In this document: positions 26,421-44,652 of the stretch, piece by piece
How the letters are laid out: every line of letters starts with the position of its first letter
Position numbering within the stretch: the stretch's first letter is position 1
Source: a virus
Reading direction: 5' to 3' (one strand)
Virus record (IMG/VR): IMGVR_UViG_3300009159_000032
DNA length: 64,000 nucleotides
Translations under genes and position numbers: made by a program
Notes under the pieces: model-generated
The model's database searches: none
Told to the model about the DNA's origin: nothing
Seen by the model: only the letters and a program-made list of their open reading frames with translations

Positions 26421-26978
26421 ATGCACGACATTGTAGACATTATTAAAAACATACAAACTATCAGTTCCAATGACACAGCATTTAAAATACTTAAAGATTT
26501 TGAACGTGTGTTAGATGAGCTAGATATCTATGTTTTTGACAACTGGAAGGACGGCGAATTAATACAAGGCCCCGAAGTTAACAGATATTCTGTTAGCTGT
26601 GAATTTATGTGGCCTAGAGAAAACATGCCTGATCCAGAAGGCGGTACAAGATTGCTAGACTACGGTTGCAAAGTGATCTACAAAAAAGACAATCTCATGG
26701 TTCCACGCAAAGTGTATAGTCCTGACGATTTTCGACCAGGAACTAAAAAAGGTAAAATAGATGCTCATCCTATTTGGCGTGTAACTATTATAATTCCTAA
26801 AAAGTTAATGCAGGATATCTTCCAAGGATACACTGATAAAGAGAATCGTGCTCTTGCAGATTCAATGAAATATGAACAAATGCTTCAGGCTAATCAGCAG
26901 GCAATGTCCGCAGGTCCAGAAGATGCGGCAGCAGGAGCAACAACAGGAGAAGCAGGTGCAGAAGTTCCGACTATTTGA
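26421..26978 (+). CDS. hypothetical protein
   Basis: 185 aa ORF behind a late-type promoter. Confidence 0.8.
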   Translation: MHDIVDIIKNIQTISSNDTAFKILKDFERVLDELDIYVFDNWKDGELIQGPEVNRYSVSCEFMWPRENMPDPEGGTRLLDYGCKVIYKKDNLMVPRKVYSPDDFRPGTKKGKIDAHPIWRVTIIIPKKLMQDIFQGYTDKENRALADSMKYEQMLQANQQAMSAGPEDAAAGATTGEAGAEVPTI

Positions 26979-27725: not shown

Positions 27726-28352
27726 ATGAGTTTTACATTTGAATTTGAAGAAAAACACTTAGAAGCAATGCTACATAATAATCCTTATGTAGATCAATGG
27801 TATAATGCGTTACATGAGATACTACCAGAATACAATATCAATACTCCCCAGCGTGTGGCTGCGTTCCTTGCCCAATGTGCTCACGAAAGCGGTGGGTTTA
27901 AATTTTTAAAAGAAAATTTAAATTACAAAGCAAAAAGTCTACGTACAGTATTTCCAAAGTACTTTACAGATGATAGTATTGCCGCACAATACGCCAACAA
28001 GCCTGAAATGATTGCCAACAGAGTCTATGCCAGTCGCATGGGCAATGGTGACGAATCTAGTGGTGACGGATATCGTTATTGTGGTCGTGGACTTATTCAA
28101 TTAACAGGTAAAGATAACTATTCATGGTTCGCTGCCAGTCTTGACATGACTCCAGAAGATGTTGCAGAATATCTAGGAACATTTGAAGGTGCTGTACAAT
28201 CAGCTTGCTGGTTTTGGGAAAACAACAACTTGAACGTAGAAGCTGACGCAGGCGATATTAAGAAAATGACCAAGAAGATTAACGGTGGTTATATTGGTCT
28301 TGAAGATCGTATCAAACATTACGAACACGCATTACACGTATTTGGAGTCTAA
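27726..28352 (+). CDS. endolysin, glycoside hydrolase family 19
   Basis: AFLAQCAHESGGF, GRGLIQLTGKDNY, KKINGG.IGLEDR. Confidence 0.92.
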   Translation: MSFTFEFEEKHLEAMLHNNPYVDQWYNALHEILPEYNINTPQRVAAFLAQCAHESGGFKFLKENLNYKAKSLRTVFPKYFTDDSIAAQYANKPEMIANRVYASRMGNGDESSGDGYRYCGRGLIQLTGKDNYSWFAASLDMTPEDVAEYLGTFEGAVQSACWFWENNNLNVEADAGDIKKMTKKINGGYIGLEDRIKHYEHALHVFGV

Positions 28353-28355
28353 CCA

Positions 28356-28814
28356 ATGTGGCAGATAATGTGGATACTTTCACTACTACCTGATTGGGTC
28401 TATCATCTTATTACTATTGCAGGTGTACTAGGATTAATTGCAGCCTGGGTTTTAAAATTTATTCCTTTTATCAGCACATATAGACTGCCTATTCAAGTAG
28501 GTAGTGTTATTGCCTTGTTGTTTGGAATATGGATGGAAGGCGGCATTGTTAACGAAGCTAAATGGCAGACTAGAGTTAAAGAACTTGAAGAAAAAGTTGC
28601 AGTAGCAGAAACACAGTCAAAAGAAGAAAATGTTAAGATTGTAACCAAGGTTGTTACAAAAACACAGATTGTAAAAGTTCGTGGAAACGATATTGTAAAA
28701 TATGTTGACAGAGAAATTGTAAAATACGATACAAAATTTGCTCCCGGCGGGATCTGCGAGATTCCTAAAGAGTTTATTAAAGCACACAACGATTCAGCAG
28801 AGGTACCAAAATGA
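28356..28814 (+). CDS. i-spanin (Rz-like)
   Basis: N-terminal TM helices plus coiled coil, directly after the endolysin. Confidence 0.7.
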   Translation: MWQIMWILSLLPDWVYHLITIAGVLGLIAAWVLKFIPFISTYRLPIQVGSVIALLFGIWMEGGIVNEAKWQTRVKELEEKVAVAETQSKEENVKIVTKVVTKTQIVKVRGNDIVKYVDREIVKYDTKFAPGGICEIPKEFIKAHNDSAEVPK

Positions 28815-29098
28815 ATTTGCTTAAATTATTTGTATTAACAATTTGTATTATACTTGCATTCTTAGCAACAGGATGTAGCACAGTAGTACCTGTAACTATG
28901 AAATTTCCCGAAGCACCAGGTAATATAGCATTAACAGCCTGTCCTCAACTGCAAAAACTACAAGAAGATGCTAAATTAAGCGATATTAGCAAGACTGTTT
29001 CTGTAAATTACACAACTTATTACGAATGTGCTGTAAAAACAGATGCATGGATAGAATGGTATCAAAAACAAAAGCAAATATTTGAAAAAGTAAAATAA
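28811..29098 (+). CDS. o-spanin lipoprotein (Rz1-like)
   Basis: Signal peptide with lipobox LATG-C, then a Pro-rich segment. Follows the i-spanin. Confidence 0.75.
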   Translation: MNLLKLFVLTICIILAFLATGCSTVVPVTMKFPEAPGNIALTACPQLQKLQEDAKLSDISKTVSVNYTTYYECAVKTDAWIEWYQKQKQIFEKVK

Positions 29099-29877: not shown

Positions 29878-30699
29878 ATGGAATATTACAATACACTAGG
29901 AATAACCAAAGATGCTGGCCCCGATGAAATCAAACGGGCTTATCGCAGTCTTGCATCTAAACATCATCCAGATAAAGGTGGCGACACTGCAACATTCCAA
30001 AAGATACAAGAGGCATACGCAACACTAAGCGACCCTCAGAAAAAATCCGAATACGATAATCCAAGGCCTCAAATGGAGGGATTCCATTTTGGTGGAGGTG
30101 GTATGCCTCAAGGATTTGAACAATTTTTTCATCAGTTTGGACCAAACATTGGAGACCTATTTGGTAGGAATAGGGCCATGCGTAATCGAAACATTAATCT
30201 AGAAACACAAATTGATTTAGAAGAAGCATATCGAGGTAAGGATGTCATTGCCAGTTATCGCCTAGGTAACAACAGTGAAAGAACATTTGAAGTAAAAATC
30301 CCCCCCGGCGTACATGACGGAGTAACTTTAAGAATTGCAGGTGCAGGTGATAATCAATATCAACAGTTACCTCCAGGCGATGCAATGTTAACTGTAAGAG
30401 TCCGACAGCATTCAAAATTTCAGCGTAACGGCAATGACCTAGTAGAACAAATTACAATTTCAGCGTTTGATGCCATGTTAGGCCGTGACTTAGAGATAAC
30501 AACCATCGATGGAAATAAATTAACCGTAGGCATAAAAGAAGGAACACAACCTGGCAACATGTTAAGAATACAAGGGTATGGTATGCCTGATTTGAACAAT
30601 CCCAATATCAAAGGTAATCATATGTTGATCATTAATGTTCAAATACCAAATAACCTTACTGAATATCAAAAGAATACAATCCGTTCTATATTACCTTAA
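29878..30699 (+). CDS. dnaJ: DnaJ/CbpA-like co-chaperone (J domain plus C-terminal domains, no Zn finger)
   Basis: YYNTLG, HPDKGG, F..IQEAY..LSD, a G/F-rich linker, and KIPPGV/GDAML C-domain. Confidence 0.92.
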   Translation: MEYYNTLGITKDAGPDEIKRAYRSLASKHHPDKGGDTATFQKIQEAYATLSDPQKKSEYDNPRPQMEGFHFGGGGMPQGFEQFFHQFGPNIGDLFGRNRAMRNRNINLETQIDLEEAYRGKDVIASYRLGNNSERTFEVKIPPGVHDGVTLRIAGAGDNQYQQLPPGDAMLTVRVRQHSKFQRNGNDLVEQITISAFDAMLGRDLEITTIDGNKLTVGIKEGTQPGNMLRIQGYGMPDLNNPNIKGNHMLIINVQIPNNLTEYQKNTIRSILP

Positions 30700-30707
30700 A
30701 TATTATT

Positions 30708-31202
30708 ATGATGAAAATTATTACTTTCCCCGATCCCATTCTTAGAGAAAGAATGCCAGAATTTGATTTTAAAAATCCTGTTATGGATCCAAAAGAATTA
30801 GAAAGAGAAATGATAGCAACTATGTTTGCCAATGACGGTATGGGACTAGCAGCCAATCAAATTGGTGTTCGAGCTCGAATGTTTGTTATGGGAGATAAAA
30901 GAAATTTCCTAATGGCCAAAGCATACTTTAATCCTATCATTGTTGCTAATACAACAGATATACATGATTTGGAAGAGGGATGTTTGAGTTTTCCTGGAGT
31001 TTATGTTAATATAAAAAGACCTACTGGGATACAAGTAGAATATCAAAATGCTGACGGTGAAACAGAAAGAGCAGAATTTCAAGGATATGATTGTAAATGT
31101 TTTTTACATGAGTATGATCATTTAGAAGGAATTACCTATCAAGATAGAGTAAGCACTTTGAAATGGGCATTGGCAGTTAAACAATCAAAAAAGAGGAAAT
31201 AA
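30708..31202 (+). CDS. def: peptide deformylase
   Basis: GMGLAANQIG, EGCLS, HEYDHLEG. Confidence 0.95.
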   Translation: MMKIITFPDPILRERMPEFDFKNPVMDPKELEREMIATMFANDGMGLAANQIGVRARMFVMGDKRNFLMAKAYFNPIIVANTTDIHDLEEGCLSFPGVYVNIKRPTGIQVEYQNADGETERAEFQGYDCKCFLHEYDHLEGITYQDRVSTLKWALAVKQSKKRK

Positions 31203-31207
31203 AAATA

Positions 31208-33478
31208 ATGTTAGAACCAAACAGCGATCTAGAAAAGATTTTTGAAAGAGCAGTTTCGATTGCTTCAAAAAATCAACACGAGTATATCACACTTGAACAT
31301 TTTCTTTATAGTATTGTAACCGACGAAACGTTCAATGCAATACTAAAAGATTTTGGTGCAGAAGTAGATCAGCTAAAAAAGAATTTGGAAAAGTTTATCA
31401 AGGACGATCTGGCAGATATTAAAACTGACAAAGAAGACTATCGTCCTAAAAAGACCAATACTGTTGAACGTATGTTAAACCGTGCATTTACACAGGTGTT
31501 GTTTGGTGGTCGTAATGTCATTGAGCCGGTTGATTGTTTTATCAGTATTTTCAGCGAAAAGAAAAGTTTTGCTAATTTTTTCTTACGTAAAGCAAAGATT
31601 GAAAAAGATAAATTTATTGAGTTTATTGAAAACAGTCCTATGGGAGAAGGTGACGAAATTAGTGAAGCTAGCGGAAATCAATTAGAAAGAATGATTGTAC
31701 AATTCTGCACTAACTTGACTAACAAAGTTAAACAGAAAAAGATTGATCCAGTTATTGGTCGAGAAAAAGAAATTGAAGAGATTCAATTGGCTCTGGCCCG
31801 TAGACAAAAATCCAACGTTATGTTGATTGGCGATCCTGGTGTTGGCAAGACTGCTATTGCAGAAGGACTTGCACGTAAGATCGAAGAAGGCAAAGTTCCT
31901 AAATTTATTCAAGACCACACTGTCTACAGTCTAGACATCAGTGGATTACTAGCAGGCAGCAAGTATCGAGGCGATTTTGAAGAACGTTTAAAAATGGTCA
32001 TTACTGCACTTGAAAAGAAAAAGAATTGTATTCTATTCATTGACGAAGCACACATGATGAACGGTGCGGGTGCAGCCGGAGGGGGTAGTAACGACATGGC
32101 TAATATGCTGAAGCCGGCATTAGGCAAAGGCACACTTAAAGTCGTTGCCTCAACCACGTGGGAAGAATTCCGTAAACACTTTGAAAAGGATCGTGCCCTA
32201 ATGCGTCGATTCCAACGTGTGATTGTGAATGAACCAAACGAAGCAACTTCTATTAAGATTATAAAAGGTCTTAAAAAGTATTACGAACAACATCACGGTG
32301 TTAAGATTACTAATCAAGCTGTCATTGATAGTGTAAAATACAGTATCAAGTATATGACTGATAAACGCCTGCCAGACAAAGCCATTGATTTAATTGACTG
32401 TGCCTGTGCTCGCTTTAAAGTACGTGATCAAGAAAACGGTATTGTTGACCACGACGAAATTGTTTTTGAAGTTAGTAAACTAACAGGTCTTCCATTAGAT
32501 CAAATTGCTGCAAAAGAAAATAAAAATCTCAAAGACCTTGACAAGAATATGCGTAGCAAAGTGTATGGTCAAGAATCTGCAATTGAAATTTTGTTAGATA
32601 AAATCTTTATTGCTCAAGCAGGTTTAAAATCTCTAAACAAACCTGTAGGTAGTTTCTTGTTTACTGGACCAACAGGCGTTGGTAAAACTGAAACTGCAAA
32701 AGTGCTGGCCGCAGGTATGAGTGTAGAACTTGTACGTTTTGATATGAGTGAGTATCAAGAGAAACACAGTGTTGCCAAGTTTATCGGTGCTCCTCCAGGA
32801 TATGTTGGTTTTGAAGACAATGCCGGACTGCTGATCACTAAACTACAAGAACATCCTAACTGTATCTTGTTATTTGATGAGATTGAAAAAGCACATCCGG
32901 ATGTTAGTAATGTCCTATTACAACTAATGGACAATGGCTACGTTACAGGTAGCAACGGTAAAAAAGCAGATGGCCGCAATGCTATTCTTATCATGACCAG
33001 TAACTTAGGGGCCGCTGATGCAGAACGCAATGCTGTAGGCTTTGGTAGTCTTGAAAGAGATGATGACGGTAAAGATGCTGTTAACAGTTTCTTTAAGCCA
33101 GAATTCCGCAATCGTTTAGACGGTATTATTAAGTTTGGAAAACTTGATCATAACACAATGGCTAAAATTGTTAAGAAGTTTATTGACGAACTTAATAGTC
33201 TGCTTAAAGATAAGAATGTTCACGTTAAACTTAATGCAGATGCTGCTGAACTATTAATCAAGAAAGGCTTTAATCGTAAAATGGGTGCCCGCCCACTGCA
33301 ACGTACTATTGACGACATGATTAAAAAGCCACTAAGTAAAGAAATTTTATTTGGTAGACTTGTTAACGGTGGCATTATTGAAATTACAGTTAAGAACAAC
33401 CAACTGTCAATAACATACCCTGAGATTCTTTCAGTTGAGGCTACAAGTGATAAAGATAAAGAGACTGAAAACCAATAA
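31208..33478 (+). CDS. clpA: ClpA-like double-AAA+ unfoldase
   Basis: Clp N-domain, two Walker A motifs (GDPGVGKT, GPTGVGKT), pore loops KYRG and GYVG, VGF ClpP-docking loop, GARPL. Confidence 0.92.
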   Translation: MLEPNSDLEKIFERAVSIASKNQHEYITLEHFLYSIVTDETFNAILKDFGAEVDQLKKNLEKFIKDDLADIKTDKEDYRPKKTNTVERMLNRAFTQVLFGGRNVIEPVDCFISIFSEKKSFANFFLRKAKIEKDKFIEFIENSPMGEGDEISEASGNQLERMIVQFCTNLTNKVKQKKIDPVIGREKEIEEIQLALARRQKSNVMLIGDPGVGKTAIAEGLARKIEEGKVPKFIQDHTVYSLDISGLLAGSKYRGDFEERLKMVITALEKKKNCILFIDEAHMMNGAGAAGGGSNDMANMLKPALGKGTLKVVASTTWEEFRKHFEKDRALMRRFQRVIVNEPNEATSIKIIKGLKKYYEQHHGVKITNQAVIDSVKYSIKYMTDKRLPDKAIDLIDCACARFKVRDQENGIVDHDEIVFEVSKLTGLPLDQIAAKENKNLKDLDKNMRSKVYGQESAIEILLDKIFIAQAGLKSLNKPVGSFLFTGPTGVGKTETAKVLAAGMSVELVRFDMSEYQEKHSVAKFIGAPPGYVGFEDNAGLLITKLQEHPNCILLFDEIEKAHPDVSNVLLQLMDNGYVTGSNGKKADGRNAILIMTSNLGAADAERNAVGFGSLERDDDGKDAVNSFFKPEFRNRLDGIIKFGKLDHNTMAKIVKKFIDELNSLLKDKNVHVKLNADAAELLIKKGFNRKMGARPLQRTIDDMIKKPLSKEILFGRLVNGGIIEITVKNNQLSITYPEILSVEATSDKDKETENQ

Positions 33479-34139
33479 GCTGTTTTTTAACAAGTGGCCT
33501 TACAAGGTCAGTTGTAAAGTTTCTGGTGCAAGCAGGGTTGTTGCACTAGGCTTAGATCGTGCCGAAAAATGGTGTAAGGGAGAGTGGTCACCTCCTTTTA
33601 ATTCCTCTCGTATGAATGTTACTGATAAACCAGATCTATTAAAGTTTGTTAGGTCCATTAAAAGTTTAACTCTATTAAAAGAAGACGTTAAGGTTAGAGC
33701 CGAAGGCGCACATTTTAATATGTTTTTTAAAGATCCTACAATTTTGAAAAAAATTGAAAGGAAACTTAGTCCCTGGATTGAAAGCATTACTGAACCTAAT
33801 AGTCAAGAAGAACACGACTTTTTAATGTCTGGTAACAGTAAAAAAGTTCTCTGTGACGAAATACCCAAAGGCAAATATGTGTTTAAAGTGTATCTCAAAG
33901 AATCTATAAAATCAGATACACGAGAACAGTTCCTTCAATGGAGTGAAAAATACGGAGAGGATATAATTTTAGTCAGTCCTACAACATTGCGATGGTTAGC
34001 AGGGCAAAAATTGTACAAGCAAGACCCGTTTTTCTATGTCAACAACGCCTCAATGATGACTATGGTTAGAATTTTCCTTGGTGACAACGTAAGACGTGTG
34101 CATGAATACGTGCCCAGAAATAAGCTAGAACCAGTATAA
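33447..34139 (+). CDS. hypothetical protein (start uncertain)
   Basis: About 230 aa ORF overlapping the clpA end. Confidence 0.75.
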   Translation: MIKIKRLKTNKLFFNKWPYKVSCKVSGASRVVALGLDRAEKWCKGEWSPPFNSSRMNVTDKPDLLKFVRSIKSLTLLKEDVKVRAEGAHFNMFFKDPTILKKIERKLSPWIESITEPNSQEEHDFLMSGNSKKVLCDEIPKGKYVFKVYLKESIKSDTREQFLQWSEKYGEDIILVSPTTLRWLAGQKLYKQDPFFYVNNASMMTMVRIFLGDNVRRVHEYVPRNKLEPV

Positions 34140-34142
34140 ATA
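34135..34142 (+). promoter_or_regulatory. T4 late promoter consensus TATAAATA
   Basis: Exact consensus 21 nt upstream of 34164. Confidence 0.75.
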
Positions 34143-34163: not shown

Positions 34164-34625
34164 ATGCCATCATTAAGTAAAAGTTTCAAATTTGTTGTTC
34201 ATACAGGAGTAGGCTCAACCGCTACTAGTGTAGCAGTAGGATATCCTTTGTATCCCTTTGGAATCTCTGGTACACAGATTTTTACTAGTATAAAAGAGCA
34301 GGGTGCCGGTTATTACGGTACTACTAACGGGTTACATACCCTAGTGGTAGCAACTACCCCAAGTTTTAGAGGTACTGCAACTGTACAGGCAACACTAACA
34401 ACAGACCCTCAAGAAGCAGATTGGTTCAATGTCAGTCCTGCAGAATTCACTTATACAGCTTCAAGTCCAGGATATATCCCCGGACAGTTAATAGGTGCAA
34501 ACCCCAATGGCACTAGCCCCGGTCCTAGAAACGATTACTCAACATTTAATGGTCAATTTACTTGGTTACGTACACGTATTGCAATCGACGAAGGTGCTGT
34601 ACTGTCTATCAAGTACAACTACTAA
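34164..34625 (+). CDS. hypothetical, possibly virion beta-sandwich protein
   Basis: 153 aa, Thr/Gly-rich, behind a late promoter. Confidence 0.7.
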   Translation: MPSLSKSFKFVVHTGVGSTATSVAVGYPLYPFGISGTQIFTSIKEQGAGYYGTTNGLHTLVVATTPSFRGTATVQATLTTDPQEADWFNVSPAEFTYTASSPGYIPGQLIGANPNGTSPGPRNDYSTFNGQFTWLRTRIAIDEGAVLSIKYNY

Positions 34626-34639
34626 GTCAAAAAAATAGC

Positions 34640-34645
34640 TAAATA
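34640..34645 (+). promoter_or_regulatory. putative late promoter TAAATA heading the 34.6-44.1 kb cluster
   Basis: 20 nt upstream of 34666, followed by a GGAG SD. Confidence 0.6.
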
Positions 34646-34665
34646 CTCAAATAACGGAGTTTGGC

Positions 34666-35043
34666 ATGCTATTGAACGAATTTTTTGGGTCTATTAATCT
34701 AAAAACAAATACTGAATCTTCAAAAAAAGAAGAACACAAAAAAGTTAAACAACAGGCCCTTGCTGACGATATTTTTGAATATATCATTAATAATAATAAG
34801 CTACACAAAAATGTATTCTTTCCCATTGCCGAAAAAATAGTTAAAGAAGCAACTAAAGAACATGATCCAAAAATGTGGATGCCTATAGTTAACAAAGGCT
34901 GTATGGAATTTTACAATCACATAAAATTAAAAGATAATCCCAAAGAACTTTTTACAGAAGAATTCCGTGAAGAATTGTGTCACAAAATGGCAGAACACTA
35001 CAACCGTGATATATTAACCGGCATATATAATCTAGGAAAATAA
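34666..35043 (+). CDS. hypothetical protein with MLLNEFF leader
   Basis: 125 aa. The leader resembles that of the next gene (MLLNQLF). Confidence 0.8.
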   Translation: MLLNEFFGSINLKTNTESSKKEEHKKVKQQALADDIFEYIINNNKLHKNVFFPIAEKIVKEATKEHDPKMWMPIVNKGCMEFYNHIKLKDNPKELFTEEFREELCHKMAEHYNRDILTGIYNLGK

Positions 35044-38000
35044 ATGCTGTTAAATCAATTATTTTCTCCTAAAAAATTATTCGAGGGCGGCAACTTAGCC
35101 AGTCACAAAGCTGACGGACAACCTATGCCAGGATGGCAGGGGATTCCTGGACAACATCAAGCACAAGAACTAGATTTAAACGTACACAACCGTACAGAAG
35201 TAGTAGCTGTACTATCTGATTTATTACACGGTATTAATGATGCATTTGCACAACAATTTAAAGAACCGCTTTGGCATGAAAATTCTGTAAAGGCTCAAAA
35301 GTTCTTAAGTGGTAGTACTATGCGATTCTTTGATAAGAAAATTTCAGACGAAGAATTTGTACGTGTCAAACCTACAGTAGGTGATATTGATACACAGGCG
35401 CCCGATAAACACGAAGGAACAATCAAACAATTCCTTACAGGATTAATTGGTAAGAAAGTAGGCGATGCTAAATTTATTGGATTTAGTGCTGGTAACAATC
35501 AATACACTAGTATGTGGGAAGTTTTACTAAAGGATCTTCCAGTTAAATTACAGATCGACTTTGAATACGGAGCACACGATCCAGAAACTGGATTACCCAC
35601 TCCGTGGCAAGAATACAGTCATAGCAGTTCTTGGGAAGATTTATCAGCAGGTATCAAAGGTGTATTTCACAAATACATCGATCGCGCCTTGCCATACGCT
35701 TCTACTGTTAGCACTAAGTATGTTGCTCGTGTATTAAAGAAAAGTACAAAAATCAGTGATGAACCTGTAACAGATTCAGATTACAGTTTTGCTGTCAGTG
35801 GTCAAGGCGGTGGTGGTGTAAGTAGAAAGTATGTTCCTTATAATGATCCAGCTACTGGTGCTCCTATGGAAAGAGACGGCATACCAGTTATGCAGTTATT
35901 AGATCCAGCAAACAGACAATACATTCAAAATCTTGGACAACAATTTGAAATTTTCTTTGGTCGTAAACCCAAAGGTAATGATCAGCAACTTAAAAATAGT
36001 TTTGTGGGCACTGTAGAACTAGCCAACAAATATCTAGACGACCAACAACGTACAGAATTATTCAACAGATTTGTATCTATATGTTTCGAACCTGGTAGTC
36101 AAATGATTACCAAAGGCGACCCAGCTAGAGATCGCAATATTAAAATGGCTGCTATTGATTACATGATTCAAAACATGAAACTTGCTAATCCTCAGGGCAT
36201 GAGAAAGCAGGCTATTAAAACAGCCATGGACTATGAGCAGGCCTTTACTTCAAAGCAGGCAGGTAAGGGCTTGAACGAAGCAGAAGTTAAGGCACAGTTT
36301 CGTAAAAACATGCCTCACCTTAAGGATCTAAAGCCCATTGATTTTTTAGATTTGTTAGATGAATTGCATCAAGGCAACGGACAATTTAAATTAAAGAATA
36401 TTCCATTAAATGTCAAAGTAGATGGCTTTGGTGGCCGCTTTGGTAAGAACTCAGACGGCAAGCCATTTATGGCCACAAGTAGAACAGAGCCGCGTTATCA
36501 AGCAGGCTTTGTTGACTATCATCAAAAGAAAGGCACAACTGATCCCGAAATACTAGGTCGTGCTCAACTTTTTGACGATTTGTTTGCAGAAATGATGAGT
36601 GCTGTACAACTTGTTGACAGCAAACTAGGTCCTGATTTTTTAATTAACAAACAAGTAACCTGCGAAGTTTTATATCTGCCATTTGCTACAGAAACTCCAG
36701 AAGGCAGGTTAAAATTTGTAGGTATACACTATGACAAACTTCCACAGGGTGTTCAATTAGCACTAGTTCCGTTCCGCGTAACAGATGCAACCACAGGCGA
36801 AGACCTTCCAGAGTCAAATAAAATAGTTAAAGAATTAACCAGCGTAGGTCGTCAAGGCAGTGTAATGTTTATTGACAACAGTCTAACACAAAACGAAGAA
36901 TTAGATGTTACTGAAATTATTAATGTGTTAGATAATATTGAAGAATTAAAACAGATTGTGTCGGACACTGCTGGTAAAAGAGATCGTGCTAGTTTAGATC
37001 TTAGACGTCAAGTTGAAGAAAAATTACAACCAGTTAAAGTAGAACTTGAAAAAGCAATTATTAACGATCCTAACATCATTGGTAAAGATTTATTGGGCAA
37101 AGACTACGAAGGTATTGTTATCAATAGTCGCCTTGGTCCTATTAAAATTACCAGTCAAGAACAACGTGATGTTATTAGTGCTAAAAATGCAGCTAAAGTA
37201 AGTGCAAGAACAGAACAGCCACGTGCAAATTCTAATAAAACAGCAGTAGTAGCAATAGGATCTTTTATTGGTCATAAAGGGCACGAAGAACTTTGGGACT
37301 ATACTGTTAAGAAAGCAGAACAAGTTGGCGGTGATCCTTATCTGTTTATCGGTAATGCAGAAGGCAAAGACGATCCTATTCCTCCTTCAGTTAAAGTACA
37401 GACATGGCATAAACTATATCCAGAATATGCTAAGAATATCAGCACAGTACAAGAAGGCGGACAGCTAATACAAAAGATCAAACACGAATTAATTAATCCA
37501 CTTCCAGGTAAACCTCCACGCTATGATAACATTATTATCATGGTTGGCGAAGATAGAGCAGGTATTAACATGCCTAATGCTTTAATGAAAGCTGTGAACA
37601 AATTCCAAGGATATGAACATGTTAAGGTAAGCCTTGATGTTACTCCGCGTGGCACTGGAATTAGCGGAACTGCGTTACGTAATAGTCTAAAAAATGATCC
37701 TCCAGAAAAAGCATTGGCTACATGGTCTAATGCATTTGATGTAAACAAACTTGGTGTTGATTGGATCAAACACTTAATGGATATAACGAGAAAAGGTATG
37801 GGCATACAACAAACACAACCACAACAACCTGCATCGCAGCCCACACCAATGGCTGAGATGAGACTGTTCAACGCTCTTGTAGCACCAAAACATAGTATGC
37901 AAGAAGGCTTAGGTAAACACGTTGCTAGTGCTGCATTAGCAGGTGCTATGGCATTCGGTGGTGCAGGAGCACATGCCCAGAGTTCAGGAGAAGATTTTTT

Positions 38001-39117
38001 ACCCGATATTGTTGCTCACGTTACTTTTAAAGTTAACGGCAAAGAAATATCAAAAGATATTAATCTAGGAACAACATATAAATCTCCCGGTGAAGCGTCA
38101 GCTGCACTTGAAAAATTCTTAAAATCTAAAGGCATCAAGTATTTTGAATATAGTCTTGAGCGTGTAAAATCAAAAGATGACGACTATATAGATAAAACTC
38201 CGGCATCAGATACAAGTACATCGGGTTCCGTAGACAGTCGTCCTTACAGTTCAACTGGAAATTCACCAAGTAACTATATGGCTAAAGAAAATGTAGAAGA
38301 AGCTAAGTCTGCTAGTAGACGTTGGCATGATGCATTACAGCGTGAAAAAGAACGCCGTGAACGCAATGAACGTGCAGGTCAAGAACTTCTAAATCCTAAA
38401 AAGAAAGAAGAACCTAAAGAAAAAGATGTGGCGGAAGGCTCCTTAGAAGCAAATACTCCAAATCCTGTTGTAGTAGTACAAGACTTAAAAGGTAAGATTT
38501 TAGATAAAGTAAATCTATCAATGGCTGTACAAAAATATAAATTAGGCAACCCGCAAGATATAAAAAATCAATTAGCACATCAAAACTATACTCAAATTGG
38601 AAATTATATTATAGTGTCACCTATGAGCGGACAGCCGCAAGATGCAACAACGCAAGGTGTGGCGGAAGGTGACAGTGGTGCAAAATATAAAGTAAGAAGT
38701 ATTGGGCACGATGCCAAAGGTGATTATTATATCAGCCCAAGCACAGGAAAAAAAGTTTATAAAAAGGGTGCCAAAGTCGGTGATCACGAAAATCCCAAAA
38801 CGGGCGAGCACAAAGGTGTAGCGGAAGGTGATAGTCCAGCAATGGCACATACTACCAAGAGCTTGGAAAATCCTCCTAAGGTTATGCAACACCGTGCCAA
38901 ACGTGATCAAGAACGTGATAAGCAACTACAATATAGAAATATTTCTAAACGAGATGAAGATCTAGACGAAAAAATCAAAGGCGCAGACGGCAAAGCCTGC
39001 TGGCCCAACTATCGTTACAACGGTACAGAGAACGGCTCAGACAAGTGTGTTAAAATTGGCGAAGCATGGGAATTAGAAATGTCTAATGCTATTAGTAAAC
39101 TATTTGAAAACCGATGA
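35044..39117 (+). CDS. multidomain polyprotein: Pol-beta-like nucleotidyltransferase, RNA/DNA-ligase-like domain, HIGH nucleotidyltransferase, and C-terminal mini-modules
   Basis: LSGS...VGDIDT...QIDFE; NVKVDG...YEGIVI...PIKI; GSFIGHKGH...ISGTALR; then modules separated by xVAEG. Confidence 0.75.
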   Translation: MLLNQLFSPKKLFEGGNLASHKADGQPMPGWQGIPGQHQAQELDLNVHNRTEVVAVLSDLLHGINDAFAQQFKEPLWHENSVKAQKFLSGSTMRFFDKKISDEEFVRVKPTVGDIDTQAPDKHEGTIKQFLTGLIGKKVGDAKFIGFSAGNNQYTSMWEVLLKDLPVKLQIDFEYGAHDPETGLPTPWQEYSHSSSWEDLSAGIKGVFHKYIDRALPYASTVSTKYVARVLKKSTKISDEPVTDSDYSFAVSGQGGGGVSRKYVPYNDPATGAPMERDGIPVMQLLDPANRQYIQNLGQQFEIFFGRKPKGNDQQLKNSFVGTVELANKYLDDQQRTELFNRFVSICFEPGSQMITKGDPARDRNIKMAAIDYMIQNMKLANPQGMRKQAIKTAMDYEQAFTSKQAGKGLNEAEVKAQFRKNMPHLKDLKPIDFLDLLDELHQGNGQFKLKNIPLNVKVDGFGGRFGKNSDGKPFMATSRTEPRYQAGFVDYHQKKGTTDPEILGRAQLFDDLFAEMMSAVQLVDSKLGPDFLINKQVTCEVLYLPFATETPEGRLKFVGIHYDKLPQGVQLALVPFRVTDATTGEDLPESNKIVKELTSVGRQGSVMFIDNSLTQNEELDVTEIINVLDNIEELKQIVSDTAGKRDRASLDLRRQVEEKLQPVKVELEKAIINDPNIIGKDLLGKDYEGIVINSRLGPIKITSQEQRDVISAKNAAKVSARTEQPRANSNKTAVVAIGSFIGHKGHEELWDYTVKKAEQVGGDPYLFIGNAEGKDDPIPPSVKVQTWHKLYPEYAKNISTVQEGGQLIQKIKHELINPLPGKPPRYDNIIIMVGEDRAGINMPNALMKAVNKFQGYEHVKVSLDVTPRGTGISGTALRNSLKNDPPEKALATWSNAFDVNKLGVDWIKHLMDITRKGMGIQQTQPQQPASQPTPMAEMRLFNALVAPKHSMQEGLGKHVASAALAGAMAFGGAGAHAQSSGEDFLPDIVAHVTFKVNGKEISKDINLGTTYKSPGEASAALEKFLKSKGIKYFEYSLERVKSKDDDYIDKTPASDTSTSGSVDSRPYSSTGNSPSNYMAKENVEEAKSASRRWHDALQREKERRERNERAGQELLNPKKKEEPKEKDVAEGSLEANTPNPVVVVQDLKGKILDKVNLSMAVQKYKLGNPQDIKNQLAHQNYTQIGNYIIVSPMSGQPQDATTQGVAEGDSGAKYKVRSIGHDAKGDYYISPSTGKKVYKKGAKVGDHENPKTGEHKGVAEGDSPAMAHTTKSLENPPKVMQHRAKRDQERDKQLQYRNISKRDEDLDEKIKGADGKACWPNYRYNGTENGSDKCVKIGEAWELEMSNAISKLFENR

Positions 39118-39383
39118 AACAATATAGAATATCAGGATTCCCAATAGATGCATCAACTGATCCAGATTGTGCATTGTCTCCTGACGATCCTATACATAAA
39201 CTAAAGGCCAGTAATTGGCTAGGTGAATTAGGCGCCGAAGCTAGGATGGCAGAATACAATAACAGCAGTCGTACGCCTACATGGAATGATCCACGTAGCG
39301 AAAATGCACGTATTATGCGTGAACAAGGTATTAAACCAGGTACTCCTGCTTGGTTCGAGCTTTGGTTTGGAAAAAATAAATAA
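39114..39383 (+). CDS. hypothetical protein
   Basis: 89 aa, ATGA-coupled, ending in IKPGTPAWFELWF. Confidence 0.75.
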   Translation: MKQYRISGFPIDASTDPDCALSPDDPIHKLKASNWLGELGAEARMAEYNNSSRTPTWNDPRSENARIMREQGIKPGTPAWFELWFGKNK

Positions 39384-39389
39384 CATATT

Positions 39390-39764
39390 ATGAGAATATC
39401 TGAATTACTCACCGAAGTTAAGTCTGGCAAAATCAGCAAGAGAGCACAACAACCCAGTCGTGGCATTAACACCTATGGCGATGTTGAACACGCAAACAGC
39501 GACTATGTAGGCTTTAAGCTAGGGCAGGCTATGGCAATGAGTGACGGTTCGGGTGCTCCGATAAACATTGACCCTAAGAGCTGGTACGGTAAAAAGAAAA
39601 CTGTGCATCCTTATTCAGAAATAGAACAACAGATGTTTAAAGATGCGGCTAAGGTAGTCGGAGCTAGTTATAAAGATATAAACAAAGGCGATATGAAAAG
39701 CAAAGAGCTAGACAGTACTCACAATATTAGTCCTGTGCCTGATAGAAAGAAGCTAGCAAAATGA
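39390..39764 (+). CDS. putative internal head protein (MRISELLTE leader)
   Basis: Leader resembles the T4 CTS MKTYQEFIAE. Confidence 0.65.
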   Translation: MRISELLTEVKSGKISKRAQQPSRGINTYGDVEHANSDYVGFKLGQAMAMSDGSGAPINIDPKSWYGKKKTVHPYSEIEQQMFKDAAKVVGASYKDINKGDMKSKELDSTHNISPVPDRKKLAK

Positions 39765-39925
39765 AAATACAAGAACTCTTAGAAACAGCAACAGGTATGG
39801 GCACCAGTGCTATTGCAACCAGCATGCCTGCAAAGAAACCTAAGAAGGGACAGAAATTAAATCTGCTTGGGACTCCTGTATCTGAGACAGATAAAGAAGT
39901 TAAGATAATAAAGAGACAACCATGA
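39761..39925 (+). CDS. 54-aa putative internal head peptide missing from the ORF track (MKIQELLETATGMGTSAIATSMPAKKPKK...)
   Basis: ATGA overlaps at both ends. Same leader as its neighbours. Confidence 0.75.
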   Translation: MKIQELLETATGMGTSAIATSMPAKKPKKGQKLNLLGTPVSETDKEVKIIKRQP

Positions 39926-40773
39926 ATCATCCAGACCACGAAATAGAAATGGCACGTTCCGAATTATATTCAATAGCCAAATATGCTATTGCACTTCACG
40001 AGATGTTAGAAAATGTCAGTGAACTAGACGGCATGGAAGGTTGGCAACAGAGTAAAATCACTCGTGCAGCTGACTACATGGAAAGTGTTTATCAAAGCCT
40101 TACACATGAAATGAAATTTGGAGAGTCTGCTCCCAAAGGTTGGGAAGGTACCGTTAAGGCCATGAAGAAACACAAGGAAATTGATAATCCTTGGGCACTA
40201 GCACACTATATGAAAAACAAAGGCTACAAGAGTCACAAGAAAGAAGAAGGTGTGGCAGAAGCAGGATATGGTCGTAACAAAGATTACGATCCCGGATTTG
40301 CCAGTCCACACGCACCAAAGTTAACACCTATTGGTGGTCCAAAACAAGATGACGAATACGTAAACGGTAATCCAGTAAACAATATTGAAGTATCTATTAA
40401 CGGTCGTCCTTGGAAGATATTTCCAGGCAAGGGACCAGATGGTAGTCGGGCATTTTTCCAACAAAAACAAGATGTTGACGAAATGTGTAAACGCAAGACT
40501 GCCGCAACTGGTAAGAAATGGAGTTGGGGTGTTACCGGTGAGCCTGCTACCAATGAAAGTACTGTGCAGGAACACAAGAAAGGTGTACGTGCTATGAAGC
40601 ATACCACTAAGCCAAGAAACCCAGTAATGGCTGGAGACAAACCAGGTAAAGCAACTGTTACTCACAAAAACAAAAAGAAAGATCAACAACGCGGTGTAGA
40701 AAAACACAAAGGCAAAGAACCTGCTTATGAATCGCGCCTGTGGAACGCACTGTCACAACACTTAGAAAAATAA
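39922..40773 (+). CDS. modular basic polyprotein-like protein
   Basis: Modules separated by FGE/, GVAE/, TNE/ and VQE/. Contains one copy of the DNA repeat. Confidence 0.7.
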   Translation: MNHPDHEIEMARSELYSIAKYAIALHEMLENVSELDGMEGWQQSKITRAADYMESVYQSLTHEMKFGESAPKGWEGTVKAMKKHKEIDNPWALAHYMKNKGYKSHKKEEGVAEAGYGRNKDYDPGFASPHAPKLTPIGGPKQDDEYVNGNPVNNIEVSINGRPWKIFPGKGPDGSRAFFQQKQDVDEMCKRKTAATGKKWSWGVTGEPATNESTVQEHKKGVRAMKHTTKPRNPVMAGDKPGKATVTHKNKKKDQQRGVEKHKGKEPAYESRLWNALSQHLEK

Positions 40774-42026
40774 TGCGTATACAAGAGCTAGTTGAAACAT
40801 CAAAGCGTACACCAGATTTGATGGATGCGTTTAAGGTTTTTATTCCTCTAGCTATGAAAGAGCTAGAGATTGATCAGCTACCTGATATTAAATTACAATC
40901 AAAATTAGAATTAGATGAACAACCTTCATTCGGACGTTTTGTTCAACATGAAAACAGAATTTATCTAGCTTTGGAAAATCGTCATCCTATTGATATACTT
41001 AGAACATTTGCACATGAACTTGTACACTACAAACAAGGTACAGAACACGAGTTAGATTCTAATAGCGGCGACACTGGTAGTCCACAAGAAAACGAAGCAC
41101 ACGAAGTAGCTGGTGTTATTATGAGACATTTTGATAAAATGTATCCTGAGTTTTTTGATACTTCTGCTGTTGATATCAGTGAAAGTTTGCGAAGTAAGGC
41201 AGCAGGGCTGGCATTAGGTGCTTTGTCTCTAGGTGCTCAAGCTACTGCACCACAGATAGTCCAACAAATTGTCGAGCCAGGTGATACAGTTTATAGTATA
41301 GCAAGACAAAATAATGTACCGCCTGCTGAAATTATGAAACTTAATAAAATGGGGCAAAAGACTAAACTTGAAATTGGTCAGAAAGTAAAAGTTCCAGATT
41401 ATTCAAAACCTATTAGCAAAATGCCTGCTACAGTAACTCCTACTGTTAAGCAAGAACCTACTAAAATATCTCCGGATGCACAGGCAGCTCCAATGAAAGT
41501 ATTGCCTAAAGTAGGCAGTGAAGTTTCTTTATTAAGTAATAATACGGATGCTGAGGCTGCATTGCAATCTGCTGCCAAAGCCGCAGGGCTTAAAGGCGCA
41601 GAGCTGGCACAGTTTATGGCGCAGACTAGACATGAAAGTTGGGACTTTGGCAAAATGAAGGAAGTAGGTAACAAGAAAAAATTTGCCAAATATGAAACTC
41701 CACGCAAAGCAAGACAATTAGGCAATAAAGTAAAAGGCGACGGTGAAAGATTTAAAGGTCGTGGCTTTATACAATTAACTGGCAGAGATAATTACACTAG
41801 AGCCAGTGAACAAATTTTTGGTGATGACAGACTAGTTCGTAAACCTGAATTAGCCAGCGATCTTAACATTGCTGCTAAGATTGCACTTTGGTATTGGAAA
41901 AATCAAGTTAGACCTAATGTAAATAACTTTAATAATACAAAAGAAGTGACTAATGCAATTAATCCGGGTCTAAGTGGACTACAAGACCGACACAATAAAT
42001 TTAAGGAGTATCTAGCAGTATTATGA
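40773..42026 (+). CDS. zincin-like HExxH domain + LysM + GH19 hydrolase, MRIQELVE leader
   Basis: TAATG overlap gives the start at 40773. FAHELVH...ENEAH; VEPGDTVYSIARQNNV LysM; AQFMAQTRHES...FKGRGFIQLTGRDNY. Confidence 0.85.
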   Translation: MRIQELVETSKRTPDLMDAFKVFIPLAMKELEIDQLPDIKLQSKLELDEQPSFGRFVQHENRIYLALENRHPIDILRTFAHELVHYKQGTEHELDSNSGDTGSPQENEAHEVAGVIMRHFDKMYPEFFDTSAVDISESLRSKAAGLALGALSLGAQATAPQIVQQIVEPGDTVYSIARQNNVPPAEIMKLNKMGQKTKLEIGQKVKVPDYSKPISKMPATVTPTVKQEPTKISPDAQAAPMKVLPKVGSEVSLLSNNTDAEAALQSAAKAAGLKGAELAQFMAQTRHESWDFGKMKEVGNKKKFAKYETPRKARQLGNKVKGDGERFKGRGFIQLTGRDNYTRASEQIFGDDRLVRKPELASDLNIAAKIALWYWKNQVRPNVNNFNNTKEVTNAINPGLSGLQDRHNKFKEYLAVL

Positions 42027-42715
42027 GAGTCAATGAATTTATAAACGAAGGCTGGAGCCAAAAATATAAAAAAAGCATTAACTGTTCGCACCCAAAAGGT
42101 TTCAGTCAACGTGCTCACTGTGCTGGCAAAAAGAAGCATAACGAAAGCATAGAAACAGAAATGACCTGCCCTGACTGCGGTCTTTGTGAGGCACACGGCA
42201 ATAGTAAAATTTACGATAAGTGCTGGACAGGTTTTAGAAAAGTACCAGGAAAGAAACGTGGTGAAGATGGTAGCTGTAAGAAGATTGGTGAAGATGAAGA
42301 ATTACATCAAGAGTTTGACTTAATTGAACAAATGGTTGAGCATATTGCAAGACAACACGCTATTGATCCTGAATTTGTCTGGGAAGATCTAGAAAGTCTC
42401 ACAGACGACGAACTATATGTATTTGCTGTCACACAAGAACCTGTAATGGAAGATTGGCAAAAAGTTAACAAAAGAGATAAAACCGATGGCATGAGCCGTA
42501 AAGCTGTTAATGCTTATCGAAGAGAAAACCCGGGTAGTAAATTAAAGACCGCCGTAACTACCAAGCCAAGTAAACTAAAGCGTGGTAGCAAGGCCAGCAA
42601 GCGTAGAAGTAGCTATTGTTCTAGGTCCGCTGGACAAAAGAGTATGCATCATATTGATTGCAGCAAAACTCCAGACAAGGCAATTTGCAAAGCACGACGT
42701 CGTTGGAACTGCTGA
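42023..42715 (+). CDS. Cys-rich basic modular protein (MRVNEFINE leader)
   Basis: Modules CSHPKGFSQRAHC, CPDCGLC, CWTG...SCKKIGE and YCSRS...KARRRWNC. Confidence 0.75.
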   Translation: MRVNEFINEGWSQKYKKSINCSHPKGFSQRAHCAGKKKHNESIETEMTCPDCGLCEAHGNSKIYDKCWTGFRKVPGKKRGEDGSCKKIGEDEELHQEFDLIEQMVEHIARQHAIDPEFVWEDLESLTDDELYVFAVTQEPVMEDWQKVNKRDKTDGMSRKAVNAYRRENPGSKLKTAVTTKPSKLKRGSKASKRRSSYCSRSAGQKSMHHIDCSKTPDKAICKARRRWNC

Positions 42716-42912
42716 TGCGAATAACAGAGCTTATTGAAAACTTTGCAGATGGTCGTAATCCACAGGATAAAGGCGATGCTAAACGTCACGGAATTAATAC
42801 CAAAGCCAGTGTAAGTAGTTTGCGTAAAACTGCCAAGCAAGGTGGACGCAAAGGACAACTAGCACATTGGCTGGCTAATATGAAAGCTGGTAGAGCTAAG
42901 AAGAAACATTAA
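42715..42912 (+). CDS. small basic protein (MRITELIE leader)
   Basis: TGATG overlap gives the start at 42715. 65 aa, Lys/Arg-rich. Confidence 0.75.
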   Translation: MRITELIENFADGRNPQDKGDAKRHGINTKASVSSLRKTAKQGGRKGQLAHWLANMKAGRAKKKH

Positions 42913-42915
42913 TAT

Positions 42916-43593
42916 ATGACCGAAGAATTGCACACTCAACCAATATATCGAAAACATGAGATACCTCTTGTTAATTATCTAATGACTTTTAAAGATGCCC
43001 TAACAGAAGAATTTTTAAAATTTCACGATAATTGGTTTAATCAAGATGAAGATGTAAAAGGCCTTATACTAACTAGACCAGCAGGTCGAAACGTTGACAA
43101 TTATTTAAGCGACCCTAATGCATGGAAATCTTCGTGGATCAGATACGAATATACTCCCGGAGGTAAAGTTCTTAATAATGATAATACTATTTGGACTTTT
43201 CCAACAGCACATAAAATAATGAAACAGTATGAAGGGCAACTTGGAATTGTTATGTATAGTGTGTTAGAAGCAAACAGTGTTATCAGTAGGCATACTGGTC
43301 CAGAAAATCGTACTGGCGAATATTTAAGAATTCATTTGCCTCTTATTGTGCCAGACGGTGATATATTTTTAGAAGTGAACGGGGAAGAAATAGATTGGAG
43401 CGAACCTTTTGGTTTTAATAATCAGTATATTCACAGTGCTCATAATTATAGTCCTAAAAGAAGATTGGTATTTTTGATCGATATTAAAAGAAGTTTTCTA
43501 GGATTACCTCGAGGAGTTCATTTTCGTGCAAAAGATCATATAGCATATCTAGCATCAGTTCAACCTTTTAAAAGAAAAGGTATTACAATATGA
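42916..43593 (+). CDS. aspartyl/asparaginyl beta-hydroxylase-family oxygenase
   Basis: ISRHTG...LRIHLPLIVP...FNNQYIHSAHN...RLVFLID. Confidence 0.8.
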   Translation: MTEELHTQPIYRKHEIPLVNYLMTFKDALTEEFLKFHDNWFNQDEDVKGLILTRPAGRNVDNYLSDPNAWKSSWIRYEYTPGGKVLNNDNTIWTFPTAHKIMKQYEGQLGIVMYSVLEANSVISRHTGPENRTGEYLRIHLPLIVPDGDIFLEVNGEEIDWSEPFGFNNQYIHSAHNYSPKRRLVFLIDIKRSFLGLPRGVHFRAKDHIAYLASVQPFKRKGITI

Positions 43594-44129
43594 GAGACTT
43601 ATTGACCATTATAGAAGCTGTAGAAACTAAAAAATTAACTACAGAAAAACTGCCCTACGGCAAGTCTGAACTTAATCCTGTCATGAGTGATGCCACTATC
43701 AATTATCATTACGAAAAACTAGCCAAGGGGTATGCAGAAAAATATAACAAAGGCGAAGGTGATGATGCTTTTAATATTGCAGGAAGTTTTCTTCATAATT
43801 TATTCTTTCCTCAATTACAGCCTCCCAAAACAAATAATAAACCTGTAGGTGCAAGTTTAGCACTTATTGAAAAGAAATTTAAATCATTTGAAAAATTTCA
43901 AGAAGAAATGCAAACTGAAGCTATGAAAATACAAGGCAGCGGATGGATTTACATGAGCACATCCGGTGCTATTAAAACAATTAAGAATCACGAGGTTAGA
44001 AAAGATATAGCATTGTTGATTGACTGGTGGGAACATGCCTGGGCATTGGACTACCAAGCAGACAAGCAAAAATATATCAAAAACATTTGGCGTATAATTA
44101 ATTGGGAAGTTGTTAACTCAAGACTATAA
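43590..44129 (+). CDS. sod: Fe/Mn superoxide dismutase with N-terminal leader
   Basis: LPY..SEL.P.MS..TINYHY, FLHNLFF, QGSGW, IDWWEHAW..DY: all four metal ligands present. Confidence 0.92.
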   Translation: MRDLLTIIEAVETKKLTTEKLPYGKSELNPVMSDATINYHYEKLAKGYAEKYNKGEGDDAFNIAGSFLHNLFFPQLQPPKTNNKPVGASLALIEKKFKSFEKFQEEMQTEAMKIQGSGWIYMSTSGAIKTIKNHEVRKDIALLIDWWEHAWALDYQADKQKYIKNIWRIINWEVVNSRL

Positions 44130-44130
44130 T

Positions 44131-44652
44131 ATGAATCAGAGACCATTGTATTTTATATCCCAAAAAAAAGAGTTAGAATTAATTAATAAATTAGAAACTA
44201 TTGTTGATAATAGGTTATTTCATCCTTCTAATACTGCTGTTATACAAGCCAGTGTTGATTTTGCAGGGACTGCGGCTATGCATCTTGCACATTCTTGGTC
44301 CGTAGGCGGAGAAATTATTCCAATTATTCCAATCGAAGTGACATACCCCGGCGAAACCTACGACTATGTTAGATCAAAATTTCAATATGATATGCGTTGG
44401 CATTTAGAACATTTTGATTATCAAAGATTTGTTGTTGTTGAAGCGGGCATTATTCGCGGTGGGAATTGGAAATGGATTTTAGAAGAATTTGCTCTTTTAA
44501 ATGTTCCTCGAGAAAATATCACATTAGTAACTATGGTAGAAAATATTCATTCAATTATAAAATCTGACTACGTCGGCGAATATTATGATGACGATAAGGA
44601 AGATTTAACTTTTTACTTTGAAAAATTTAACAAGCACTGGCCGGTAAAATAA
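44131..44652 (+). CDS. phosphoribosyltransferase-fold-like protein
   Basis: RFVVVEAGIIRGGNW resembles a degenerate PRPP-binding loop. Confidence 0.5.
   Translation: MNQRPLYFISQKKELELINKLETIVDNRLFHPSNTAVIQASVDFAGTAAMHLAHSWSVGGEIIPIIPIEVTYPGETYDYVRSKFQYDMRWHLEHFDYQRFVVVEAGIIRGGNWKWILEEFALLNVPRENITLVTMVENIHSIIKSDYVGEYYDDDKEDLTFYFEKFNKHWPVK

Follow-up and report, generated by a model that had tools for sequence, protein, structure and literature searches.

A putative virion-cargo locus with portable, glutamate-ended leaders in an uncultured jumbo phage of the T4 superfamily

A block of coupled genes with recurrent N-terminal leaders

The subject of this study is a block of genes at positions 34164-44129 of IMG/VR virus record IMGVR_UViG_3300009159_000032 (a stretch of 64,000 nt, all of which was analyzed and which is referred to below as the window). 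Most genes of the block begin with a short, acidic leader that ends in glutamate and resembles the capsid targeting sequence (CTS) of the T4 internal proteins. The block is best read as a hypervariable locus for virion cargo in a T4-superfamily jumbo phage. Its features are listed below; a slash within a motif marks the boundary that follows a Glu residue.

34135-34142, + strand: T4-type late-promoter core TATAAATA, 29 nt before the gene at 34164
34164-34625, + strand: 153-aa beta-rich protein, no leader, conserved first gene of the block
34666-35043, + strand: family A, 125 aa; invariant M-L/K-L-x-E-F-F start, variable charged linker, helical domain
35044-39117, + strand: 1357-aa polyprotein; 14-aa leader ends L-F-E just before G-G-N
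39114-39383, + strand: conserved leaderless open reading frame (ORF) of 89 aa; start overlaps the polyprotein stop
39390-39764, + strand: family C, 124 aa, basic (isoelectric point, pI, 9.5); 9-aa leader ends L-T-E
39761-39925, + strand: 54-aa basic peptide (pI 9.9); 8-aa leader plus a copy-like version of the capsid protein's predicted post-cleavage N-arm
39922-40773, + strand: 283-aa basic protein without a leader of its own; one V-A-E/A junction
40773-42026, + strand: 417 aa; 8-aa leader, zincin-like HExxH domain, I-S-E and a Gly/Ala-rich hydrophobic segment, LysM, GH19 muramidase/chitinase-like domain
42023-42715, + strand: 230-aa Cys-rich basic protein; 9-aa leader, C-terminal DUF6321 (Pfam) preceded by V-M-E
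42715-42912, + strand: 65-aa very basic peptide (pI 11.1); 8-aa leader plus N-F-A-D-G module
42916-43593, + strand: 225-aa AspH/LpxO/OlsC-like 2-oxoglutarate hydroxylase, leaderless (Pfam Asp_Arg_Hydrox, NCBIfam)
43590-44129, + strand: 179-aa Fe/Mn superoxide dismutase (SOD); variant 9-aa leader ends I-I-E (Pfam Sod_Fe_N, Sod_Fe_C)

An initial annotation of the window had proposed that eight of these ORFs share a CTS-like leader. All eight are present with ATG starts, and their N-termini read as it had described: MLLNEFF (34666), MRISELLTE (39390), MKIQELLE (39761), MRIQELVE (40773), MRVNEFINE (42023), MRITELIE (42715) and MRDLLTIIE (43590), together with that of the polyprotein (35044). The strict pattern ^M[RK][ILV].E[LFI].{0,2}E, applied to ATG-initiated ORFs of at least 30 aa in the six frames of the 64-kb window, matches 5 of 699, namely 39390, 39761, 40773, 42023 and 42715, all of them real gene starts inside 3.3 kb (39390-42715); column shuffles give 0.037 expected matches on average and never more than 2. 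When the pattern is broadened, the only additions among the 79 called genes of the window are 34666 and 35044, and these two carry a second flavor of leader, M-L-L-N-[EQ]-[FL]. The leader of the SOD gene fits neither pattern. A further leader proposed at 26956 has to be withdrawn, as the codon there is a GTG within a longer ORF (26872-27705, in overlap with the end of the gene before it), with no ATG start and no match to the tag.

The consensus of the predicted propeptide is M-[RKL]-[ILA]-x-E-[FL]-[FIL]-x(0-1)-E, and [LI]-x-E occurs within the first 14 residues of all eight window leaders. Third codon positions are identical at 1-5 of 7 sites per pair of leaders; this divergence indicates selection on the leader peptide and not on the DNA, and it rules out the leaders being DNA repeats. 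Features of Sec or Tat signal peptides were not found in the leaders, which are acidic, amphipathic segments of 8-17 aa in which Glu occupies position 5 and the last position. Hydrophobic Gly/Ala segments are present in the block internally, after Glu sites, and never as the leader.

The genes are coupled, with stop and start codons that abut or overlap by 1-4 nt at 35044, 39114, 39761, 39922, 40773, 42023, 42715 and 43590, and downstream of TATAAATA there is no gap of more than 40 nt from 34164 to 44652. The late-type promoter that was proposed to head the cluster is conserved in relatives: the ATAAATA core lies upstream of 36 of 48 distinct homologs of the gene at 34164, compared with 11% of background ORFs, and the same late-type motif is found ~28 nt ahead of fiber and tail genes. 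CTAAATA also occurs at 34639, 27 nt ahead of 34666. A scan for sigma-70 promoters and terminators did no better than shuffles.

The phage and its relatives

Judged by its sequence, the window is part of a novel, uncultured jumbo phage of the T4 superfamily. Its family-B DNA polymerase (PolB) is 51% identical to that of the Sinorhizobium jumbo phage Phosso and 43-46% identical to those of Atu_ph07 and of the 350-380-kb Escherichia jumbo phages. In IMG/VR there are hundreds of relatives with PolB identities of 80-99%, including contigs of 328-364 kb with CheckV completeness of 92-100%, and it is these identities and near-complete relatives that support the assignment. An exact 40-mer taken from the window was absent from IMG/VR and from JGI metagenome contigs. 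A megablast search with the block gave no match to 50,697 cultured-phage records, and tblastn found no homologs in cultured phages for the 65-aa (42715) and 124-aa (39390) cargo proteins.

Two sets of relatives were used for comparison: 160 related IMG/VR loci, together 2.46 Mb, for which PolB or the ClpA-like ATPase served as anchor, and, for head-module and genome-wide tag counts, the long relatives, notably the near-complete G001 (371 ORFs) and G010 (455 ORFs). In a contig whose PolB is 99% identical to that of the window, one module is relocated and the hydroxylase gene is missing, and thus the cargo locus turns over fast.

The leader is portable and concentrated in the locus

Across the related loci, 896 ORFs lie between the ClpA-like gene and PolB, and 251 of them have the broader leader pattern, compared with 0 of the 971 flanking ORFs upstream of the ATPase or downstream of PolB. 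Genome-wide, the tag is present on 14 of 371 ORFs in G001 and 13 of 455 in G010, chiefly in the cargo locus and beside the head module (further tagged ORFs of G001 adjoin tail and baseplate-type genes), and no recognizable replication gene of either genome is tagged. The tag is thus missing from replication genes and from the other flanking genes.

The initial annotation had regarded the leader as a portable tag, and the relatives bear this out. Single-linkage clustering of the bodies of 290 unique tagged ORFs gives 38 clusters, and homologous bodies carry leaders of differing flavor and length (8-17 residues) that always end at the same body residue. For example, members of a 320-aa family have either an M-L-L-S or an M-R-I-K leader ahead of G-G-N-V-F, and the leader of the zincin family is either M-L-L-T-Q or M-R-I-Q-E. 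The bodies behind the leaders in the window are likewise unrelated according to Pfam and PHROG assignments (NTase-like, where NTase is nucleotidyltransferase, SOD, hydrolase and basic peptides), and the small cargo proteins resemble the T4 internal proteins in being basic (pI 9.5-11.1).

G001 has a second small tagged cluster at 302-309 kb (306379-309342; L091, L100). It also has a tagged, low-complexity ORF of 219 aa at 126585-127244, with TATAAATA 39 nt upstream, which lies ~1 kb ahead of ORFs leading into the head module.

A conserved glutamate at leader and module boundaries

Two lines of evidence indicate that, as had been proposed, the leader closes with an (L/I)-x-E site of T4 type, and that this site coincides with a conserved boundary of the body. 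First, among 378 tagged ORFs 60% have [LI]-x-E within residues 5-12, compared with 5% of 3034 others. Second, the polyprotein N-domain has leaderless homologs that begin with M-G-G-N (Vibrio phage Va1, Xanthomonas phage X1), and in both Campylobacter phage CP21_014 and the window a Glu-ending leader stands ahead of the same G-G-N.

The same residue also marks the starts of individual modules. Glu precedes the N-F-A-D-G module in 44 of 44 distinct contexts, at positions 9-1371 of proteins of 64-1775 aa, the DUF6321 start in 10 of 10 contexts and a module resembling the N-terminal arm of the major capsid protein (MCP) in 43 of 44. For these three unrelated modules together, Glu is in place in 97 of 98 contexts, whether N-terminal or inside giant polyproteins.

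The window polyprotein has three V-A-E/G junctions, at aa 1129, 1206 and 1259, and L-F-E two residues before its stop, where relatives run on into the N-F-A-D-G module. A leader-like internal sequence at aa 936-946 (37849-37881), following M-A-E, looks like what remains of a once-separate tagged gene after fusion in frame. It is followed by a Gly/Ala-rich hydrophobic segment at aa 955-980 (37906-37983), after M-Q-E. A second such segment (41184-41243) is located in the 40773 protein directly ahead of the LysM-GH19 part and is kept in relatives as E/[GD]-W-[KR]-D-W-x-A-G-A-A. Both segments resemble signal or signal-arrest-release (SAR) anchors, and cleavage at the preceding Glu would make them N-terminal anchors.

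Leader-like motifs in the head module and the capsid protein

Of the 10 long relatives, 8 encode Peptidase_S77 (PF03420, the T4 gp21-type prohead protease), among them each of the 3 with a completeness of at least 90%. The gene order in G001 is Portal_T4, an 80-aa ORF, an acidic 311-aa ORF, Peptidase_S77 at 133993-134619, a 366-aa ORF and Gp23, which we take to match the T4 map order 20-67-68-21-22-23. In G001 and in G010 the 80-aa ORF begins with the cargo tag, each time in a different one of the two flavors, and the scaffold-position and capsid proteins have N-termini with motifs related to the tag. In these relatives, then, the clade encodes a protease of the gp21 type together with a head module of T4 type, and proteins of that module begin with the same tags.

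A more specific connection involves the capsid protein. In G001, residue 41 of this protein aligns with residue 11 of mature T4 gp23* (HMMER); the [LI]-x-E sites closest to this position terminate at residues 19 and 42. In small tagged peptides (39761 in the window and many in relatives), the leader Glu is followed by a stretch of up to 13 residues that is identical to the capsid sequence past residue 42, and these peptides match the predicted capsid junction L-S-E/S-A-T-A-G. Among the 371 ORFs of G001, this arm pattern is unique to the MCP. Because the peptides copy the capsid sequence that follows residue 42, the leader-body junction can be equated with the likely maturation site of the capsid protein. 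Docking to the capsid lattice and a role as protease decoy are possibilities for the arm copies. Examples of the arm module are located at 39785-39925 of the window, L160:17675-17857 and L173:13573-13818, and it also ends larger proteins.

A model for cargo loading and its alternatives

We consider it probable that the tags are capsid-targeting propeptides removed by the prohead protease and carried by hypervariable packaged proteins and polyproteins. The propeptide, an amphipathic and acidic segment of 8-17 residues on most genes of the block, would play the role of the T4 CTS. It would dock the protein onto the scaffolding core during prohead assembly, after which a gp21-type prohead protease would cut behind the terminal Glu, at (L/I/V)-x-E, and also at the Glu-marked junctions within the giant polyproteins. 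The processed modules would remain in the DNA-filled head and exit with the DNA at infection. The predicted cargo comprises the basic peptides, the zincin-like protease, the LysM-GH19 wall hydrolase, the three-nucleotidyltransferase set, the DUF6321 protein and probably the SOD.

Several points weigh against this model. We infer docking, cleavage, head retention and ejection by analogy with T4, and enzymes of such size would need to pass through the tail tube of a myophage. The protease and head genes are seen only in relatives with PolB identities of 81-89%. In the more distant cultured relative Phosso the leader DNA pattern gives 3 matches versus 2 in the control, which is no enrichment, and the tag in its present form is clade-specific. 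Within the block, the genes at 39114, 39922 and 42916 are leaderless, the SOD leader fits no common pattern and family A has L-x-E only at residues 3-5, where a cut would release a very short propeptide; the leaders of 34666 and 43590 are best described as variants for which predicted cleavage is less clear. At internal junctions, P3 is often V, M, E, A or N instead of L or I. It is also possible that the invariant Glu belongs to each module and is not a protease P1 residue.

If the model is correct, the principle of one tag for many cargoes extends beyond the T-even phages, and an abundant clade of uncultured jumbo phages has a large, evolvable delivery system. Because they would act before any phage gene is expressed, the cargo proteins would be prime candidates for counter-defense and takeover functions. 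Tag and Glu boundaries would allow what such phages bring into the cell to be listed from sequence only, and the locus supplies new leader sequences for protein encapsidation as well as testable protease-unmasked signals.

An extended version of this scheme, which we hold tentatively and think rather unlikely, is a combinatorial system of Glu-delimited cassettes in which protease cuts unmask functional N-termini and the phage injects a ready-processed enzyme kit consisting of the NTase/ligase set, the zincin protease and the SOD. The Sec/SAR-like anchor, once unmasked on the LysM-GH19 hydrolase and one module of the polyprotein, would take these proteins to the envelope after injection, and the capsid N-arm copy on the small basic peptides could dock them in the capsid lattice. 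If true, the tag would be a sequence handle for injected counter-defense proteins in uncultured phages.

A different fate for the tagged proteins is conceivable if they are parts of the prohead core or inner scaffold, targeted and cut in the same way and then either degraded and expelled or kept solely for head assembly or DNA condensation, and so not injected. Most T4 core proteins (gp22, gp67 and gp68) are cut to fragments that leave the head (PMC9026906), the head-module ORFs of the relatives carry the tag too, many modules are small, basic or low in complexity, and the MCP-arm copies suggest a capsid-internal role. It is difficult, however, to see an obvious use in the head for an SOD, a GH19 domain with LysM, an HExxH zincin and three NTase-like domains, all with catalytic motifs intact. 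The turnover of the locus between near-identical phages also fits genes for host interaction and not for assembly. We judge this explanation to be improbable.

The leader could instead serve another process, such as recognition by a ClpA-like unfoldase or DnaJ, regulated degradation, localization within the infected cell or processing by the zincin of the locus itself, in which case the Glu boundaries would be part of such a system and not of prohead-protease processing. The genes for DnaJ, peptide deformylase and a ClpA-like ATPase that lie directly upstream of the block in every relative, and the HExxH protease domain encoded within it, would suit such a role. This would leave unexplained why tag and boundary are shared with head-module ORFs and with the capsid maturation junction, why the leader matches the T4 gp21 motif and why a late-type promoter is present; in addition, neither ClpP nor an adaptor turned up in the window. 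A function of this kind thus seems to us quite unlikely. Finally, the shared N-termini might be a functionless by-product of an AT-rich initiation context favoring M-K/R-I (AAA, AGA and ATA codons after ATG are common in AT-rich genomes) or of a short recombination sequence moved along by cassette shuffling in a locus that is visibly recombinogenic. Against this, third codon positions are not conserved among leaders, conservation reaches E5, F/L6 and also the final Glu, none of the 971 flanking ORFs in these genomes is tagged, and a leader that varies in length has an end fixed relative to the body. We give this by-product reading very little credence.

Individual genes and their neighbors

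The first gene of the block (34164) has 93 homologs in the related loci, and its product gives weak PHROG matches, one of them to a 'virion structural protein' family. The family A gene is always immediately upstream of the polyprotein gene. In an alignment of 37 family A sequences, M1, L3, E5, F6 and F7 are invariant. Residues 1-20 of the AlphaFold2 (AF2) model have low predicted local distance difference test (pLDDT) scores, with the N-terminus and linker modeled at low confidence, and the body is a helical bundle for which Foldseek found no fold match in the PDB. Nothing usable for families A and C came from the ESM Atlas. Family C has 251 metagenomic relatives, every one of them unnamed, and a homolog in G001 near the tail-sheath gene.

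Three domains can be read from sequence motifs in the polyprotein: Pol-beta-type NTase-like (G-S...D-x-D), K-x-D-G ligase-like and H-x-G-H cytidylyltransferase-like. The NTase assignment of the initial annotation is supported by these motifs and by matches to PHROGs 19290, 12709 and 3041, which are its whole basis; a PDB sequence search with the polyprotein was empty. In Xanthomonas phage X1 (L190, OQ427096 79667-83016), the polyprotein enzyme domains are four separate leaderless genes adjoining primase/helicase genes. This conserved enzyme set possibly acts in RNA or nucleotide repair.

The ORF at 39114 has 81 homologs, all with an M-K-Q-[YF] start, and no family match in Pfam or PHROG; segments homologous to the 39922 protein lie inside leader-tagged proteins in some relatives. 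The hydroxylase gene at 42916 is an insertion between the N-F-A-D-G peptide gene and the SOD gene that the closest relatives, L003 and L001, lack. The 42023 protein has homologs in T4-like cyanophages.

The 40773 protein matches LysM and Glyco_hydro_19 in Pfam and endolysin and metallo-protease families in PHROG. The AF2 model of its zincin domain has a pLDDT of 83.7, with the leader (pLDDT 47) a low-confidence appendage outside the fold, and Foldseek returned only weak fold matches for the N-domain, to minigluzincins, Wss1 and IrrE. This protein is unlikely to be the endolysin, given a separate lysis-like cassette. That probable cassette, at 27726-29098, encodes a 208-aa protein with a weak GH19 match, a 152-aa membrane protein and a 95-aa lipoprotein-like ORF.

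The SOD has an N-terminal extension of 14 residues over solved Fe/Mn SODs, its residue 20 aligning with their residue 6-7. The SODs of relatives have a different extension, of 10 aa, that ends [LV]-x-E. A search of NCBIfam contributed little. Immediately upstream of the cargo locus in all relatives is a proteostasis block, which in the window spans 29878-33478 and encodes DnaJ, peptide deformylase and a 756-aa ClpA-like ATPase.

Comparison with known systems

The closest parallel is the T4 CTS, the sequence of which is given in PMC8442874. It is likewise a short N-terminal propeptide on unrelated proteins (IPI, IPII, IPIII and Alt) and is removed by gp21 (PMC9026906; PMC3012670; PMC8442874), which cleaves after L/I-X-E (PMC9026906). 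In IPIII, targeting needs no more than the first 10 residues, of which residues 4 and 7 function in targeting itself and residues 8 and 10 in processing (PMC9026906), and a review describes CTS-like sequences on other basic proteins of T2, T4D and T6. The principle is thus already known from the T-even phages.

The parallel drawn in the initial annotation between leader and CTS is one of pattern only. Both follow hydrophobic-x-E-hydrophobic-hydrophobic-x-E, here offset to one residue earlier, and both end (L/I)-x-E. The resemblance extends to the Portal_T4, Peptidase_S77 and Gp23 genes of the clade, as present in the relatives, to the small basic cargo found beside enzyme cargo (Alt in T4) and to the variability of the locus between close relatives. 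The T4 tag itself persists in T4-like cyanophages, as indicated by a 233-aa basic ORF by the small terminase gene of Synechococcus phage MA01 (L103, PP110484 46275-46976), which starts with a near-copy of the T4 CTS, the first six residues being identical.

Jumbo phages related to phiKZ (phiKZ, 201phi2-1 and SPN3US) offer a second comparison (PMC9026906, PMC5694885, PMC10052503). They too have many head-internal proteins that are cut after Glu, with propeptides removed, multiple sites per protein and a mass of protein ejected with the DNA, but their protease is a diverged gp21 homolog acting at S/A-X-E sites, and we did not find a common N-terminal tag described for their cargo in these papers. 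In contrast, the head module of the relatives studied here is of canonical T4 type by Pfam (Gp23, Portal_T4, Peptidase_S77). The leaders do not have the S/A-X-E form: position 7 (P3 if the terminal Glu is residue 9) is mostly F, I or L, and S or A is never among its common residues. Only some internal junctions, for example V-A-E/G, approach the phiKZ motif.

A functional analogy for the 40773 protein is gp16 of T7, an internal core protein with a lytic transglycosylase domain that is packaged in the head and ejected. In both cases a wall hydrolase would be carried in the head and released at infection. T7 gp16 is not known to have a cleaved targeting propeptide of the kind predicted for the 40773 protein and is part of a podovirus core stack, and the two are unrelated in sequence.

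Relative to T4, the present system belongs to an uncultured jumbo phage (relatives of 330-360 kb) and is known from sequence alone. Its leader has a different consensus and comes in at least three interchangeable flavors, and many more genes are tagged, 7-8 in the window and dozens of body families across the clade. Its giant polyproteins are built of Glu-delimited modules that also stand alone as tagged genes, and its predicted cargo includes an Fe/Mn SOD, a LysM-GH19 protein with a zincin domain and a three-NTase fusion, none of which are known from T4. What distinguishes it from the T-even systems is therefore its scale, its interchangeable leader flavors, its Glu-delimited polyproteins, its copies of the capsid arm and its enzyme cargo.

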